Part shown: piece after piece, positions 3,797 to 62,421 of the stretch
Layout of the letters: each line of letters opens with the position of its first letter
Position numbering within the stretch: position 1 is the first letter of the stretch
IMG/VR virus record: IMGVR_UViG_3300045974_000198
Reading direction: 5' to 3' (one strand)
Source of the DNA: a virus
DNA: 64,000 nucleotides
The notes under the pieces: generated by a model
Database searches by the model: none
Told to the model about the DNA's origin: nothing
The model's input: the letters and a program-made list of their open reading frames with translations, nothing else
Translations under genes and position numbers: made by a program

Positions 3797-4165
3797 ATGA
3801 CACAACAAGTAAAATCGACTGACGAGATCCGCATTGGAAACCTCGAAAAGGCTATCACTTCTATCTTTAAGAAGATGAAAAGCCTGGAAGTTTTTAACAA
3901 GTTTTTACTAACAAATCTCATTGAGAATTGCGCTCAGACTTCTGGGACTGTTGACTATTTAATAGCCAACCAAGATGCAACTCTTGATGAACTCTCCTTC
4001 CATTCGGAGATGGCACGAGATGCTATCATCGAGGAAGTATTCAAAGATGGGGTTGTGAATCCTGACGGCCTCGCCATTACGAAACTCAGCAAACCGCCTA
4101 TTGCTACGAAGGTCGAAGAACCAGCTAAGGCCACACCTGCTAAGATGGAACTGAGTATATCGTAA
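3797..4165 (+). CDS. hypothetical protein
   Basis: ORF with GGGAG RBS. Confidence 0.55.
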   Translation: MTQQVKSTDEIRIGNLEKAITSIFKKMKSLEVFNKFLLTNLIENCAQTSGTVDYLIANQDATLDELSFHSEMARDAIIEEVFKDGVVNPDGLAITKLSKPPIATKVEEPAKATPAKMELSIS

Positions 4166-24746: not shown

Positions 24747-25091
24747 ATGGAAGCAAAACAAATTATGCCTCCTTACCGCAATGGTCAAGGACACGTTTAC
24801 ATCCGAATGGAAAAGAATCTTATGGAAGGTAAGATGCTTATTCCTGGAACCAAAGAAGGGATCATGTATCTTGATGCCCCTGCACATCGGCGTATTATTG
24901 GTGCCGAAAGAGCTGAAGCAGCAGTTGAATTTCATGATTTTCTGGAAGTTTGCCGTGAAGAAGATCTCGATGTTATCATCTGCCCTAATGGCGTTATCAT
25001 TGTCTCTGATATTGATGACATTCAAGGCGCTGGTGAGACTATCCGTGAAGCCTATTTCCACTATCAAGTGGAACTTGAGAACGCTGAGTAA
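24747..25091 (+). CDS. hypothetical protein
   Basis: AAGGAAGG RBS before ATG 24747. Confidence 0.55.
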   Translation: MEAKQIMPPYRNGQGHVYIRMEKNLMEGKMLIPGTKEGIMYLDAPAHRRIIGAERAEAAVEFHDFLEVCREEDLDVIICPNGVIIVSDIDDIQGAGETIREAYFHYQVELENAE

Positions 25092-25141
25092 TAATATAAT
25101 AAGAAAATATTATAACCTTAGTTATTAACAAGAAAAGATGT

Positions 25142-25215
25142 AGCCCAATAGCTGAGGGGTTTAGCAGAGTCTTGATAAGGCTCAGAGGATGGTTCGAGAC
25201 CATCTTGGGCTACCA
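25142..25215 (+). tRNA. trnI: tRNA-Ile(GAT)
   Basis: GAGTC-TTGATAA-GGCTC; encoded CCA. Confidence 0.82.
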
Positions 25216-25223
25216 AATAATAT

Positions 25224-25298
25224 TCCATCTAACGCGCCGGGTGCGCGAAATGACTGTTAATCATTTGCAGGTAGGTTCAAGCCCTACAGGTGGAGCCA
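25224..25298 (+). tRNA. trnN: tRNA-Asn(GTT)
   Basis: AATGA-CTGTTAA-TCATT; encoded CCA. Confidence 0.85.
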
Positions 25299-25568
25299 AT
25301 GTAAAGAGATTGACCGGCCTAACCCTAAGCGACGGCAAGAGGATTGTAACTGAGTGATATCCCAGGTTACATTAACCGGTCTCTTTACGATAAAGGATAA
25401 AACAATGAGACCAGGTCCACTAATGTATGCATGTGTAGTCTTCTTTGTGCTATCAATTGGATCAATAGCCGCAGATGATGGTAAAGCAAAATTTGCAAGG
25501 CCATATATGGTAGGATGCTTACTAGCAGGGTGTATGGCTGCAGCATGTAAAGAAGATTAAATAATTGA

Positions 25569-25645
25569 TGCGAAGTATGGAAGTGGTCTATCCGCCGAGG
25601 TTCATATCCTCGGAATCGTTGGTTCGAATCCAACCTTCGCTCCCA
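25569..25645 (+). tRNA. trnM: tRNA-Met(CAT), initiator-like 1-72 mismatch
   Basis: CGAGG-TTCATAT-CCTCG; unpaired first base; encoded CCA. Confidence 0.8.
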
Positions 25646-25762
25646 ATTGTTCTGGTTTATAGTTCTTTGGATGATATTCGCACCAAGTGCACCTGACAGC
25701 AATTCCGTGTTTCATTAAATATCTAAATATTCCACATTTATCATTGTCAGGTATTACCATAG

Positions 25763-25969
25763 CTAACTCCTCTTTGTGTTTCTATAGCTTGTAGCACAAG
25801 ATAAGTTACAGAATTTCTTAGCTCGTGCATCCTTCACTTTCATTGTTTCTGTGACATCAATAATTTTGTCACATAGTAGACATCTGTTAGGATCAGCATA
25901 ATAGCGAGTAAGCGCTTCATTTCTCAACTTAGCAGCAGTGATCTTTCCACCTGTAGATTGTTTAGACAT
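25763..25969 (-). CDS. zinc-binding protein resembling an HNH N-terminal module
   Basis: GGAGG RBS on the minus strand; CLLC and FCNLSCA motifs. Confidence 0.6.
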   Translation of the reverse strand: MSKQSTGGKITAAKLRNEALTRYYADPNRCLLCDKIIDVTETMKVKDARAKKFCNLSCATSYRNTKRS

Positions 25970-26009
25970 AAATTCACCTCCGAGTGATTTGTGTGTTAAT
26001 AACTGTATA

Positions 26010-26028
26010 CAGCTACCCCCTGCGCTTG
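26010..26028 (+). repeat. GCTACCCCCTGCGCTTG motif, copy 2
   Basis: Identical core to 10323 and 34504. Confidence 0.75.
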
Positions 26029-26246
26029 TTGAAATCCTTATAAAAACTTTTTTGATTTTTACAAAATTTTCATACAGAGGAAAACATGGACCGTTTAGAT
26101 ATTGAATATGCCCTTAAGATAGTGAAGACCGGTGACTACGATGGTAGAGAGGTCTGGGTATCACGAGTGTTAGCTTCTGAGTTGTTAAGATTGAGATTAA
26201 TTATAAAAGAAGCATTCAATGATTCTTGTCAGCATGAAAAGATTTA

Positions 26247-26272
26247 GCTTCCATAGCTCAGTAGGGAGAGCA
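26247..26272 (+). pseudogene. orphan 5' half of a tRNA (Thr-like body)
   Basis: GCTTCCA + D arm; complementary to TGGAAGC at 26894-26900. Confidence 0.7.
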
Positions 26273-26318
26273 CCTTAGTTATTAACAGCTAGGCTATATG
26301 CCACTGGAGGTAACTAAG

Positions 26319-26801
26319 ATGAAAGTTTGTGCAAAATGTGGTAATGAATTTAAGCTTTTCATAAAGATTGATGGTAAGCAGAGAAACTTAAAGAACAGAA
26401 AGTTCTGCTTAGATTGCTCACCATTTGGAGAACATAATACAAGAGGATTGATCTCAGACAAGAAAATACATGAAAGTGTTTGTATATCATGTGGTCGAGA
26501 TTTTGTATATGTGAGAGAAGCTGGGCATAGTAAAGGCAAGTGTAATACTTGCTGGACTAATGAAAAACGAAGAGCACTAAAGATTAAGGCTATTGAATAT
26601 TTAGGTGGCCAATGCTCAGTTTGTGGTTATAGCAAATGCACGGGTGCACTTGACTTCCACCATAAGGACCCTAAAGCAAAAGAGTTTGGCTTATCACATA
26701 AGAATTATATTAAGTGGGAAGCTATGAAAGCTGAATTAGATAAATGTATACTATTATGTGCTAATTGCCATAGAGAATTGCATTCTGGGCTGTTAGCTTA
26801 G
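26319..26801 (+). CDS. HNH homing endonuclease (paralog of 10554-10892)
   Basis: YLGGQCSVCGY, LDFHHKDP, KCILLCANCHRE; TAG stop lies inside the following tRNA. Confidence 0.85.
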   Translation: MKVCAKCGNEFKLFIKIDGKQRNLKNRKFCLDCSPFGEHNTRGLISDKKIHESVCISCGRDFVYVREAGHSKGKCNTCWTNEKRRALKIKAIEYLGGQCSVCGYSKCTGALDFHHKDPKAKEFGLSHKNYIKWEAMKAELDKCILLCANCHRELHSGLLA

Positions 26802-26862
26802 TGGCTTAAAGCAGGGCTCTCTAAAAGCCCGACCATGGGTTCAAGTCCCATACAGCTCACCA
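26787..26862 (+). tRNA. amber suppressor tRNA (CTA anticodon)
   Basis: Canonical 76-nt cloverleaf: GGGCTGT/ACAGCTC, GGGCT-CTCTAAA-AGCCC, ATGGG-TTCAAGT-CCCAT, ACCA. Confidence 0.88.
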
Positions 26863-26872
26863 ATTACGCTTC

Positions 26873-26904
26873 GGTCGTCGGTTCGACTCCGACTGGAAGC
26901 ACCA
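26873..26904 (+). pseudogene. orphan 3' half (variable loop, T arm, acceptor strand, ACCA)
   Basis: GGTC-GTCGG-TTCGACT-CCGAC-TGGAAGC-ACCA. Confidence 0.75.
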
Positions 26905-26949
26905 AGAAGTCCTACGAAAGTAGGCATATTACATCAAAAGGAGTTTCCT

Positions 26950-26982
26950 ATGAAAACGCTTTAGGTTGCAAGGCCTCCATAA
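26950..26982 (+). CDS. leader mini-ORF MKTL(TAG)VARPP(TAA)
   Basis: AAGGAG RBS 6 nt upstream; internal amber at codon 5. Confidence 0.45.
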
Positions 26983-27073
26983 CTCCATAAATTTAGGATA
27001 GCTCGAATTGACGCATAGAGAGAAATCTCTAGGATGAGGCTCTTAACCAATCCACTAAATTTGGAGAATAACT

Positions 27074-27370
27074 ATGGAAAGCATATTTGAGACAAGAGAA
27101 GAATATTTCGCCTTCGTTAAGGCATGGAAAACAACGTATAATTCTGAAGACAGGAGCCAGCTTACTTTTCAGCACTATCTATTATATAGGCTGTTTAAGG
27201 GCAAGGATCCTGAGGCATGTATAGCCAAGACCAGTTCTCAGTTTACAAAACAGAGAGCAAAGCACTGGTTGGAAAAATGTAAGCCTGAAAACCTTTCCTT
27301 GTGGCCGTTCGGTGGGTCAATCACCCCTGAGATGGCAACTAAAGCAAGAGTAATTATGGGGTATATATAA
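27074..27370 (+). CDS. hypothetical protein coupled to the Pth-like gene
   Basis: GGAG RBS; TAA overlaps the next ATG (TAATG). Confidence 0.7.
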   Translation: MESIFETREEYFAFVKAWKTTYNSEDRSQLTFQHYLLYRLFKGKDPEACIAKTSSQFTKQRAKHWLEKCKPENLSLWPFGGSITPEMATKARVIMGYI

Positions 27371-27690
27371 TGTAGACTCCATATACATATGTCTTTGTCC
27401 GCAAAGATATACCGCTAGCAGCTCAACTAGTTCAAAGTAGTCACGCAGCTCTTGAGCTTGGTCTTCAACTCCCTAAGCACAAGAGTCCCTCAAAGGTGTC
27501 TTCGTTAATTATGCTTAGCATCGCTAATGAAGAAAAGCTACTAATGATTAAAGATGAGCTCGATGAAAGAGGCATTCAAAGTTATATGTTCTTTGAGCCA
27601 GATTATAACATGGGATATACTGCTATTTGCACTGAACCCATTTATAACGACGATAGAAAATATTTCAAGAAGTTTCAACTCTGGAAATGA
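27370..27690 (+). CDS. Pth2-like peptidyl-tRNA hydrolase with in-frame TAG at codon 2
   Basis: ATG TAG then TPYTYVFVRKDIPLAAQLVQSSHAALE...FFEPD..GYTAIC, in frame with track ORF 27496-27690. Confidence 0.75.
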
Positions 27691-27863
27691 TGATGTAGAA
27701 GGCCTTTAGTATGCCTATTGAAATACTAGCCCAGACACCTACTGGTTAAAAGTGGGAACGACTCCGTGACCTGACAGTGTAACGGAAAGAAATCTAGGTT
27801 AACTGCTATCAAGGCGATACCTGCCAGCCTGGCTAAGTGGTATGACTGATGGAGAGACATCAC

Positions 27864-27882
27864 CAGCTACCACCCCCGCTTG
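27864..27882 (+). repeat. variant of the GCTACCCCCTGCGCTTG motif
   Basis: CAGCTACCACCCCCGCTTG followed by an A/T tract like the other copies. Confidence 0.55.
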
Positions 27883-27922
27883 GGTGGTCTACACAAAAAC
27901 TTTTTTTCAATTTACTAAATTT

Positions 27923-27999
27923 GCACCCATAACTCAGTTGGTAGCAGTAGGGAGCTTTTAACTCTCAAGTCGTTCGTTCAAGTCGAACTGGGTGCACCA
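27923..27999 (+). tRNA. trnK: tRNA-Lys(TTT)
   Basis: GGGAG-CTTTTAA-CTCTC; encoded CCA. Confidence 0.88.
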
Positions 28000-28024
28000 A
28001 AAAACTTTTAAGGAGTAACACAAA

Positions 28025-29635: not shown

Positions 29636-29711
29636 ATGCCCTTCGTTCAATGTAAAGGACACTGGGACCTTTAACCAGTGAATGTAGGTTCAAATCCTAC
29701 AGGGCATACCA
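29636..29711 (+). tRNA. atypical tRNA with 9-nt anticodon loop (GACCTTTAA)
   Basis: ATGCCCT/AGGGCAT acceptor, good T arm, ACTGG/CCAGT stem, encoded CCA. Confidence 0.6.
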
Positions 29712-29988: not shown

Positions 29989-30064
29989 GCCCCGGTAGCT
30001 CAGAGGCTAAGCGTCGGTCCTACAAACCGAAGTCAGACTGATTCGAATTCAGTACGGGGTACCA
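29989..30064 (+). tRNA. trnV: tRNA-Val(TAC), C33
   Basis: TCGGT-CCTACAA-ACCGA; encoded CCA. Confidence 0.78.
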
Positions 30065-32061: not shown

Positions 32062-32139
32062 GTGAGGGAACGCAATGGTAGGTGAGCGGTTCGGCTGTGA
32101 CCCGGATGTTAGTTGGTTCGACCCCAACCCTGCACTCCA
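32062..32139 (+). tRNA. trnH: tRNA-His(GTG), imperfect acceptor stem
   Basis: TTCGG-CTGTGAC-CCGGA; encoded CCA. Confidence 0.7.
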
Positions 32140-34503: not shown

Positions 34504-34523
34504 GCTACCCCCTGCGCTTGCAG
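34504..34523 (+). repeat. GCTACCCCCTGCGCTTG motif, copy 3
   Basis: Identical core; 30 nt upstream of tRNA-Gly. Confidence 0.75.
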
Positions 34524-60879: not shown

Positions 60880-61403
60880 GATGATTTCAGAAGTGTGGAT
60901 ACAGAATAATCCTGAAACTTATTTCTTTCTATCTATGATCTTAGAAACAAACAGACAAATAAAAGAAAGAGAGCAGGTAAGAAAATATTATTTAAAGAAT
61001 AAAGAAAAGAAGAAGGCTCAAGTAAAGAAATGGACTTTATCTAATCCTCAAAATATAAGAGATGCGAGTAAAAGGTATGCAGCTAAGACTGGAAAGCTTT
61101 ATTGGCGTGCAAGTGTAAAGTTACATAATTGGCGGGTATCTATATATAAATCATGTAATTCTAAGTGTTTAGTTTGTGGCTCTGATAATGATTTGCAAGC
61201 TCATCATATTTATAACTTTAAAGAATATACTGATCTAAGATATTCTGCTGCGAATGGAGTGCTTTTATGTAAAGCTTGTCATATACTTACTGGCGGATTT
61301 CATTCTTCTTATAGAAATATAAATAATCACCCATTACAGTTTGAAGAGTTTAGAGTTAATAGAGCATGGGAATTAGCTTGTGCATAAATCTTTTGGAGTA
61401 TAA
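60867..61403 (+). repeat. 13-bp direct repeat TTTTGGAGTATAA flanking the HNH gene
   Basis: Copies at 60867-60879 and 61391-61403 (also 10978-10990). Confidence 0.6.
60881..61387 (+). CDS. HNH endonuclease
   Basis: CLVCG..LQAHHI...NGVLLCKACH..FH. Confidence 0.85.
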   Translation: MISEVWIQNNPETYFFLSMILETNRQIKEREQVRKYYLKNKEKKKAQVKKWTLSNPQNIRDASKRYAAKTGKLYWRASVKLHNWRVSIYKSCNSKCLVCGSDNDLQAHHIYNFKEYTDLRYSAANGVLLCKACHILTGGFHSSYRNINNHPLQFEEFRVNRAWELACA

Positions 61404-62421
61404 ATATGAATAAAGACCTAGGAACATTGATCAGTGTATTAAAAGATATTGCTATTTATAAGTATGATGGGCACTATACAATATTCTCTTTTACAACTGG
61501 GTACAGAGTAATGCTTGGTACCCCTGATCTTGATAGCGGAGCTGGCAGGAGAGAACTTGAAGAAGCAACTAACACTTGCTCAACACTCGAAGATGCTATC
61601 ACAAACTGTATTATTAACGAACTAGAATAATATTAACAGGAGAAATAAAAATGGCAATTAAGTATTGTAAAATTGGACTAAGCTTAAACATTGGAAACCG
61701 TAAGGCTTCTATTGGTGAGCCCATCGAACTACCAGAAGGCGAGCTTAACACTAACACATGTGATGGTGAGCTTAATATTCTTGTAGCTAACTTTGCTATG
61801 GCAGTAATGGCTCTACCAAGTGCGGATTCAACATATACATTTGATGGTGTTAAGAATGCTGTAGCTGACTACTTTCAACTGCAACCCATTGTAGGAGAGT
61901 AATATGTATTGGAAATGGATTAGGGTCATCGTAGAGGTTGCGCTAACAATCATTTTAGCACTAATGGTATAAGGTTAATATGCACGATAAAATGCAAGCA
62001 GTAATAAATAGCACTAAGAAGCTTATAGCTTCATTAGAAAACCTAGATATAGAAGGCCCTATTCCGTTTCTTGAGGAAGCAATCTGTAATATTGAACAGG
62101 CTCAGGAAGAGTGGGAGCTATATCATGGTGAGGAAGAAGAGTAATGGATATATATGAAGTTGAACAGTTGCTTGAAAGTAAATTTGAAAACATGGGACAC
62201 AGTTCTAAAGATAGTGTATTCTGCGTTACGCTCGCTGATGTCATTGATATCATGGCTGTAGCTCTTGGGACAGATGCACTAAAGATACATGACCATGACC
62301 TGATTGAGTATCTTAAGAACGTTAAGAACTTACTTGAGGATCACCTATCTCATACTATCTATGCTGCTATCAATGATGATATAGAAGAGACTAGAGAAAA
62401 CAGACTAGCTGAGGGTAAGCA

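Follow-up and report, generated by a model that had tools for sequence, protein, structure and literature searches.

A putative HNH homing-endonuclease cassette with its own tRNA(CUA) gene inside a broken tRNA gene of a pond-metagenome phage

Results

A tRNA gene split by an HNH gene and a second tRNA gene

The window analyzed here is the whole 64,000-nucleotide (nt) stretch of DNA from IMG/VR virus record IMGVR_UViG_3300045974_000198; it is strand-biased, belongs to a large phage from a pond metagenome, and contains 25 tRNA genes found by ARAGORN and three more found by Rfam. At positions 26247 to 26904, a unit made of an HNH endonuclease gene and an intact tRNA gene with the anticodon CUA was, as we can say with good confidence, inserted into a resident tRNA gene. 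Read from the sequence, the order is the 5′ fragment of a tRNA gene, a leader, the HNH gene, the intact tRNA(CUA) gene (here called the cargo), a spacer, and the 3′ fragment of the broken tRNA gene. The window has a second, paralogous cassette around 10.5 kb. The parts are as follows.

26247 to 26272, plus strand: 5′ fragment of the broken tRNA, GCTTCCA-TA-GCTC-AGTAGGGA-GAGC-A, comprising an acceptor strand, the D arm, and position 26
26273 to 26318, plus strand: cassette leader of 46 nt with the palindromic motif GTTATTAAC (26278 to 26286) and a ribosome-binding site, GGAGG (26306 to 26310)
26319 to 26801, plus strand: HNH endonuclease gene of 160 amino acids (aa) with an ATG start, a match to phrog_2255, and a TAG stop within the next tRNA gene
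26787 to 26862, plus strand: cargo tRNA with the anticodon CUA, intact, CCA encoded (ARAGORN; Rfam tRNA, 60.3 bits)
26863 to 26867, plus strand: spacer ATTAC, read from the sequence and assignable to neither tRNA
26868 to 26904, plus strand: 3′ fragment of the broken tRNA, GCTTC-GGTC-GTCGG-TTCGACT-CCGAC-TGGAAGC-A-CCA
10471 to 10973, plus strand: paralogous cassette with an Asp-like 5′ fragment (10471 to 10497), an HNH gene (10554 to 10892), an intact tRNA-Asp(GUC) (10868 to 10946), and a 3′ fragment (10947 to 10973)

Alignment to related tRNAs identified the two fragments at 26247 to 26904 as tRNA positions 1 to 26 and about 39 to 76; positions 27 to 38, including the anticodon, are absent. 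The 5′ fragment aligns to the 5′ parts of the tRNA(CUA) genes of relatives, and the 3′ fragment aligns to positions 39 to 76 of the tRNA(CUA) genes at L188, L221, and L226 (loci retrieved for comparison are given L numbers). In the 3′ fragment, GCTTC is the probable 3′ strand of the anticodon stem and is followed by the variable loop GGTC, the T arm, the acceptor strand TGGAAGC, A73, and CCA. A reading of the 3′ fragment as an acceptor/T-arm minihelix, in which GCTTC would pair with GAAGC, was dropped, since GCTTC aligns with the 3′ strand of the anticodon stem in the relatives' tRNAs.

The acceptor strands of the broken tRNA pair at seven of seven positions in each of the two cassettes, which is expected by chance at about 1e-3 per pair. 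A scanner for orphan halves masked the intact tRNAs and searched the remainder for a T arm with its acceptor strand and, upstream of it, a D arm preceded by an acceptor strand complementary to the first; it retrieved only these two units from both strands of the window and gave no match in 627 kb of reversed control sequence. The stretch from 26247 to 26272 is the sole partner for the 3′ fragment that has the canonical TA and a G/C-paired D arm. The complete pairing and the outcome of the scan argue that the fragments of each pair derive from one gene and are not independent decay products, a possibility that had been raised in a preliminary description of this DNA.

The HNH gene at 26319 to 26801 matches the PHROG profile phrog_2255 with an E value of 1.9e-44, and the HNH gene at 10.5 kb matches it with an E value of 3.4e-30; the Pfam HNH models match the HNH genes of the window weakly, below their cutoffs. 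At least 1,400 database relatives of the family exist. The encoded protein keeps the motif GGxCxxCGY...FHH...CxxxCxNCH, with all invariant columns present (G96, C99, C102, Y104, F113, H114, H115, C143, C147, N149, C150, and H151). Its AlphaFold model has a predicted local distance difference test (pLDDT) score of 85.8, and residues 80 to 160 weakly resemble the HNH domains of Cap5, McrA, and Gme (Foldseek; best E value, 0.026); a PDB sequence search, NCBIfam, and Foldseek revealed no close characterized or solved relative, and the best identity in a search of Joint Genome Institute (JGI) metagenomes with the HNH protein was 51%. The start of the open reading frame (ORF) is preceded by GGAGG, its last five codons overlap the cargo tRNA gene, and its stop codon TAG (26799 to 26801) coincides with tRNA positions 13 to 15.

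The HNH gene thus ends on TAG inside the gene of the accompanying tRNA(CUA); the sister HNH gene stops with TAA. Read-through of the TAG (26799 to 26990) would append 63 residues from the tRNA genes and the spacer and would end at 26990. A 178-nt contig from a peat metagenome matches the HNH gene at 26405 to 26582 with eight differences (95% identical) and indicates that a close relative of the HNH gene occurs in another habitat.

The cargo tRNA folds into a canonical cloverleaf with the anticodon loop CT-CTA-AA, the pairs G1-C72 and G2-U71, and A73, and its Rfam score (RF00005, 60.3 bits) lies well above the 29-bit cutoff. It is the only tRNA(CUA) found by ARAGORN in the window and is a predicted amber suppressor. 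In the alignment, it differs from the broken target throughout the acceptor and D arms.

The sister cassette has the same plan. The two HNH proteins are 49% identical, the paralog at 10.5 kb being shorter, and the homology extends to the leaders of their genes (alignment score of 12 versus 3.7 ± 1.6 for shuffled sequences, a score reached by 1 of 2,000 shuffles); yet, the two cassettes occupy different tRNA genes. Among 538 phage tRNAs, the fragments of the sister cassette best match tRNA-Asp. Its 3′ piece starts only at the T stem, and target positions 32 to 48 are absent. With tRNA-Asp(GUC) as its cargo, the sister cassette is predicted to replace like with like, Asp into Asp. The structural core of the preliminary description is therefore borne out: the GCTTCCA and TGGAAGC halves were found with all their elements, the CTA anticodon sits in a cloverleaf called by ARAGORN, the HNH reading frame runs into the new tRNA, and the unit is a paralog of that at 10.5 kb.

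Insertion at the DNA level

In principle, the fragments could still yield a working tRNA, either as a split tRNA or as one with an intron, through splicing or assembly of their transcripts. The perfectly preserved acceptor, D, and T arms and the encoded CCA would fit such a tRNA, as would two loci of other phages (L009 and L080, see below) in which all tRNA nucleotides are still present around the HNH insert. We nevertheless regard this as extremely improbable. With Rfam at E values of up to 10, no group I or group II intron was detected in either cassette or in six related split loci, and ARAGORN, allowing introns of up to 1,500 nt, built no joined or intron-containing tRNA from the fragments. 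The room for a ribozyme is restricted to about 45 nt of noncoding sequence before the HNH ORF and none after it, where the ORF ends inside the cargo tRNA. Moreover, tRNA positions 27 to 38 are absent here, and positions 32 to 48 are absent in the sister cassette. The lack of a ribozyme together with the missing tRNA positions argues for a DNA insertion rather than an intron, and both cassettes are DNA-level insertions that killed their target tRNA genes.

The HNH family is associated with tRNA genes in other phages

HNH relatives collected from IMG/VR and JGI metagenomes amounted to 155 distinct ORFs, 121 of which lie in loci with tRNA genes. Sixty-six of the 155 end between −30 and +80 nt from the start of a same-strand tRNA, and a search for HNH genes that overlap tRNA 5′ ends, as proposed in the preliminary description, returned 41 of the 155. 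Such overlaps are also present in the Pseudomonas phage M5.1, in which the HNH gene (26882 to 27250) overlaps an annotated tRNA-Gly starting at 27236, and in the Felixounavirus Escherichia phage garuso, in which the HNH gene (61176 to 61661) overlaps an annotated tRNA-Ile starting at 61656. The stop codons of overlapping HNH genes fall mostly at tRNA positions 8 to 10 (the conserved T8-A9-G10) or 13 to 15. The downstream tRNAs are of many isotypes, most commonly Asn, Gly, Gln, and Ile; the tRNA(CUA) of the window is the sole suppressor among them. A tree of the HNH proteins is poorly resolved with regard to the downstream tRNA isotype (14 of 151 branches supported), and its clades share tRNA isotypes, though many of these entries are kin.

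Not only the overlap but also the split target is found elsewhere, with tRNA genes interrupted by family HNH genes at six further loci (L009, L080, L060, L118, L181, and L050). At L009, a tRNA-Asn is precisely interrupted between positions 26 and 27, and an intact tRNA-Asn lies 6 nt upstream; at L080, the HNH gene is inserted within the anticodon of a tRNA-Asn. At L050, as in the window, an intact tRNA, tRNA-Ile(UAU), is nested together with the HNH gene inside the split tRNA, and, as we read it, this case also replaces like with like. The insertion points in the split tRNAs are concentrated in the stretch that runs from the D-arm end to the anticodon loop.

Some of these loci carry further RNA-like elements. 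At L080, a weak match to a hepatitis delta virus (HDV)-like ribozyme (RF02682, 34.3 bits, cutoff of 44) lies directly after a tRNA gene of the array (4041 to 4109). At L060 (3843 to 3960) and L118 (2063 to 2170), a long stem after the D arm of the 5′ fragment encloses degenerate anticodon-like and T-arm-like hairpins; the anticodon-like hairpins read CTGATAA or CTGATAC, and the whole gives the impression of a second, nested tRNA remnant.

A resident tRNA(CUA) upstream of a Pth2-like gene

Three reading frames that follow the cassette bear on what the broken tRNA may have been.

26950 to 26982, plus strand: leader ORF MKTL-TAG-VARPP-stop with an in-frame amber codon, read from the sequence
27074 to 27370, plus strand: conserved 98-aa ORF before the Pth2-like gene, with homologs of 91 to 102 aa in the same place at L188, L190, L221, L225, and L226
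27370 to 27690, plus strand: Pth2-like gene with TAG as codon 2, translated with TAG read through; homologs are 50 to 85% identical, one of them with PF01981

The Pth2-like gene is a likely client of the suppressor tRNA, and L188 has a similar leader, MK-TAG-IFKKPP-stop, at the corresponding place. A search with the Pth2-like protein turned up homologs at 32 loci of other large phages, 18 of which have a tRNA(CUA). In those 18 loci, the tRNA(CUA) is uninterrupted and lies mostly 100 to 900 nt upstream of the Pth2-like gene; a family HNH gene adjoins it in none of them, which makes these loci candidate empty sites. Distant relatives, with a Pth2-like protein of 30 to 65% identity, have an uninterrupted tRNA(CUA) and no HNH gene there, and a CUA-type tRNA likewise precedes the Pth2-like gene in three closer relatives on short contigs (L221, L225, and L226; about 64% identity). 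An in-frame TAG is present within the first five codons of the Pth2-like gene in many relatives. As judged by these comparisons, a tRNA(CUA) upstream of the Pth2-like gene set is an old conserved module. The window's lineage must therefore have possessed a suppressor already when the cassette came in, and the uninterrupted tRNA(CUA) at this place in relatives makes the suppressor a resident function and no novelty here.

The resident tRNA(CUA) scaffolds at the Pth2 locus differ greatly between phages. At L189 (4190 to 4520), L192, L193, and L194, tRNA-Gln(UUG), tRNA-Gln(CUG), and then tRNA(CUA) stand in tandem upstream of the Pth2-like gene. The amino acid carried by the suppressor could not be deduced from the Pth2 alignment, in which the TAG position is variable among homologs; the Q at this position in many database proteins is partly an artefact of translating TAG as Q.

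Which tRNA was broken

Target positions 1 to 26 plus 39 to 73 were used to compare the broken gene with other tRNAs, since its anticodon is lost. A sample of 906 distinct phage tRNAs was taken from all loci retrieved by that stage; the tRNA(CUA) of L188, which is identical in T stem, A73, and CCA, matches best, and the CUA-type tRNA of L226 comes fifth. In this sample, CUA tRNAs have a median score of 18, compared to 9 for the others (Mann-Whitney, P = 6.5e-6). The sister cassette and, as we read it, L050 replace like with like. Position, the prior need for a suppressor, the first-rank match among the 906 tRNAs, and the like-for-like replacement in the sister cassette (and L050) lead us to propose, as an evenly balanced call, that the broken gene was the phage's earlier amber-suppressor tRNA and that the replacement was like for like.

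Several observations weigh against this assignment. Besides the loss of the anticodon, three Thr(UGU) tRNAs score 31 against the broken fragments in the 906-tRNA sample, a search of IMG/VR for the D-/T-arm type yielded Asn, Ala, Lys, Thr, and Ile tRNAs but zero CUA tRNAs, and one tRNA-Asn outscores the tRNA(CUA) of L188 as a match to the fragments (38 versus 34). The top isotype varies with the sample, being Thr in 538 tRNAs, CUA in 906, and Asn in the pattern-selected IMG/VR set; similarity is therefore suggestive only, and not diagnostic, as a guide to the isotype of the broken tRNA.

Alternatively, the gene hit by the cassette may have coded for a normal sense tRNA, whether Thr-like or of another kind, so that the incoming amber suppressor gave the phage a new decoding ability. 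Such a swap would be in keeping with the scores of the Thr(UGU) tRNAs, the fragment D arm being typical of bacterial Thr(UGU)-type tRNAs, with a generic D-/T-arm class that held no CUA tRNA in the targeted IMG/VR sample, and with the nested order, in which the tRNA(CUA) arrived with the HNH gene. On the other hand, the relatives have their tRNA(CUA) beside the same TAG-containing Pth2-like gene, the window has no second tRNA(CUA), a tRNA(CUA) heads the matches in the unbiased sample, the sister cassette and probably L050 exchange tRNAs of the same kind, and TAG is not recoded in the window. We therefore consider the swap unlikely. The label "Thr-like" in the preliminary description does not hold, as positions 27 to 38 are gone and the D and T arms are generic and common to Asn, Ala, Lys, Thr, and Ile tRNAs; its sense tRNA exchanged for an amber suppressor gives way to the more likely like-for-like replacement, and its claim of a new decoding capacity is not supported, given the tRNA(CUA) that relatives carry upstream of the same, often TAG-containing, Pth2-like gene.

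TAG terminates 12 of the 69 ORFs of at least 100 aa in the window, and reading TAG through mostly just fuses adjacent genes and reveals no hidden long genes. The window is predicted to use the standard code with few early in-frame TAGs and is not a TAG-reassigned ("code 15") phage. The route toward stop-codon reassignment that had been envisaged earlier is speculation for this phage, in which TAG is still a stop and no sign of genome-wide recoding is seen.

Other elements of the window

Two further features lie upstream of the cassette.

26012 to 26028, plus strand: promoter-like 17-mer motif GCTACCCCCTGCGCTTG, general to the tRNA region and outside the cassette
26086 to 26247, plus strand: orphan ORF of 53 aa (from the ORF list) whose stop codon reaches into the first base of the broken tRNA

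The orphan ORF has no Pfam or PHROG match, and a homolog search returned only the ORF itself. The motif GCTACCCCCTGCGCTTG is present in three exact copies (10323, 26012, and 34504) and one copy with three mismatches (27866), compared to 0.02 expected, and is a probable phage promoter or regulatory site. It lies 131 and 218 nt before the 5′ fragments of the two cassettes, as had been noted before; the copies at 34504 and 27866 lie 32 to 40 nt upstream of tRNA-Gly and tRNA-Lys, which makes it a general motif of the tRNA region and not a part of the cassette. About 20 nt after the motif follows an A/T-rich stretch resembling AAAAACTTTTT. A single match to GCTACCCCCTGCGCTTG in a high-GC contig, inside a gene, was set aside as chance.

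The palindrome GTTA(A/T)TAAC, of the GTTATTAAC type, occurs six times in the window (3733, 6252, 10515, 25121, 25995, and 26278), compared to 0.5 expected. It lies 30 to 55 nt upstream of ORF starts, including those of both HNH genes, and 12 nt upstream of a tRNA-Ile, and could act as an operator or as a promoter element of the −10 type. The 16-mer ACCTTAGTTATTAACA is common to 25115 to 25130 and 26272 to 26287. Scans for sigma-70 promoters and terminators gave results at chance level.

The window contains further tRNA-like elements. Between 9276 and 9813, three tandem units have rotated tRNA parts in the order T arm, acceptor 3′ strand, CCA, acceptor 5′ strand, D arm, and anticodon arm; their leader and trailer sequences are conserved, and they adjoin a gene of 506 aa. 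The three tRNAs that were found by Rfam and missed by ARAGORN lie at 29636 to 29708, with an odd 9-nt anticodon loop (GACCTTTAA), at 29989 to 30061, which is Val(UAC) by eye, and at 32062 to 32136, which is His(GUG) by eye with an extra 5′ G. An element at 12060 to 12135 (GGGGTAG...T arm GCAGG-TTCGAGC-CCTGT-CTGCCCT-G-CCA) is tRNA-like, was called by neither finder, and lies just upstream of an ORF at 12156.

Discussion

A probable homing cassette with a replacement tRNA

The best explanation for the unit at 26247 to 26904, and one that we hold with moderate confidence, is that a free-standing HNH homing endonuclease, traveling as a cassette with a tRNA(CUA) of its own, was inserted into a resident tRNA gene, which may well have been the phage's earlier suppressor. 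The nested order of 5′ fragment, HNH gene, tRNA, and 3′ fragment requires that the HNH gene brought the tRNA(CUA) along, since insertion of an HNH gene beside a resident tRNA would not produce this order, and both HNH genes of the window sit inside broken tRNA genes, i.e., they disrupt their putative target site. By analogy to SegB of phage T4 and other free-standing homing endonucleases, the HNH protein would cut or nick the cassette-free target tRNA allele of a coinfecting relative, and recombinational repair would copy the block of leader, HNH gene, and tRNA into the break. The two ends of the old gene would remain as dead flanks, and the cargo tRNA, divergent in sequence, would escape cutting and restore the lost function. 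The founding would have been a rare illegitimate event; spread would then proceed by ordinary homing, with the fragments as homology arms. The activity and the target of the nuclease, the movement of the unit, the ability of the cargo to escape cutting, and the choice of tRNA that was broken are inferences of this model.

Some points speak against it. The nested order is not obtainable by ordinary homing into a naive site, and at least one illegitimate founding event is needed. The nuclease activity and specificity of the HNH family are putative. A high-identity cassette-free allele was not found, nor was a close phage relative in the databases searched: a megablast search of 25000 to 28000 against GenBank phages gave no match, a search of IMG/VR with the flanking proteins (the 98-aa ORF and a 473-aa ORF) gave no relatives, and IMG/VR does not contain the exact 5′ fragment. 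Judged by the Pth2-like protein, the nearest relative (L190, 85%) is a 954-nt contig that ends short of the tRNA site. Among sequencing runs, this DNA was returned only from the pond metagenome that is its probable source, and no RNA run was listed with it. Contigs of the pond metagenome have only the cassette-bearing form, with no joint across either cassette, although a coverage gap there proves nothing.

The nested order could also be the relic of a rearrangement, in which recombination among neighboring tRNAs next to an old, domesticated or idle HNH gene placed one tRNA inside another and nothing is mobile at present. The source sample indeed has no presence/absence polymorphism, close relatives with the same cassette were not found, and the target has lost its anticodon arm on both sides, as might be expected with age or after imprecise events. 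However, neither HNH ORF is damaged or lacks an invariant residue, the fragments pair at seven of seven positions and keep perfect D and T arms, the family splits other tRNA genes in unrelated phages, and the 178-nt peat contig encodes part of an HNH gene with 95% identity. We regard a relic as very unlikely and prefer the homing cassette.

A bolder extension of the homing cassette is that HNH-tRNA cassettes are natural cleave-and-rescue gene drives on tRNA genes, in which the rescue need not match the target, so that a sense tRNA could be overwritten by a suppressor, or a phage without a suppressor could acquire one. This generalization seems to us distinctly unlikely. If it were true, it would entail a rapid turnover of phage decoding genes, stop-codon read-through or reassignment could be seeded in this way, and the diverse tRNA(CUA) scaffolds at the Pth2 locus would be the footprint of repeated overwriting.

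If an endonuclease destroys a tRNA gene and supplies the substitute itself, this would explain the fast turnover of phage tRNA sets, the odd tRNA fragments in arrays, and the occurrence of equivalent tRNAs with unrelated sequences at one locus. The amber suppressor of the window appears to gate a conserved Pth2-like gene, so that cut-and-replace could pass stop-codon readers from phage to phage or exchange one for another. Cultured phages (such as Felix O1-like phages and Otagovirus) carry members of the HNH family, which makes the idea testable at the bench.

Comparison with known systems

No description of the nested cut-and-replace layout was found in the literature searched. Its logic of destruction and rescue is that of synthetic cleave-and-rescue (ClvR) or toxin-antidote drives, in which a nuclease destroys a needed resident gene and the drive carries a resistant rescue copy; those are engineered with Cas9 in animals, whereas the cassette described here is natural, HNH-based, found in a phage, and putative in its function. 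The mobE gene of phage Aeh1 reportedly is a free-standing HNH endonuclease gene that splits nrdA. Like the cassettes of the window, it is an intron-less endonuclease gene inside a host gene that leaves two halves; the halves of nrdA are polypeptides that still work together, whereas here they are dead remnants of an RNA gene and function comes from the second gene of the cassette. Group I introns with homing endonucleases reside in the tRNA-fMet and tRNA-Leu genes of cyanobacteria and likewise place an endonuclease gene inside a tRNA gene near the anticodon arm; in contrast to these, our cassette has no ribozyme, part of the tRNA is deleted, and rescue would come from a replacement gene instead of splicing.

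SegB of phages T4 and T6 is a free-standing GIY-YIG homing endonuclease in a tRNA cluster whose homing logic has been shown experimentally (PMC2330249; PMC13096335). It resembles the HNH cassettes as a selfish nuclease in a phage tRNA array that cuts in tRNA genes, is coinherited with neighboring tRNA genes, and has a wide association with tRNAs of many isotypes (PMC2330249; PMC13096335). The nucleases differ in fold, GIY-YIG versus HNH, and SegB lies between intact tRNA genes; the SegB papers contain neither a broken target flanking a nuclease plus tRNA nor an ORF that ends inside the next tRNA (PMC2330249; PMC13096335). HNH genes have been found in the tRNA clusters of mycobacteriophages and upstream of long tRNA arrays of bacteria and were proposed to spread tRNAs (PMC6409571; PMC8421152). 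These are described as neighbors only, without a split target, a nested tRNA, or a suppressor as cargo, and the likeness considered here is one of location. Suppressor tRNAs are known from stop-codon-recoded phages, and the paper on them draws no link between suppressors and homing endonucleases (bioRxiv 10.1101/2021.08.26.457843). The common feature is a phage tRNA with the anticodon CUA (bioRxiv 10.1101/2021.08.26.457843); the difference is that the window keeps TAG as a stop and that its suppressor seems to serve a few early TAGs, in the Pth2-like gene and the leader peptide.

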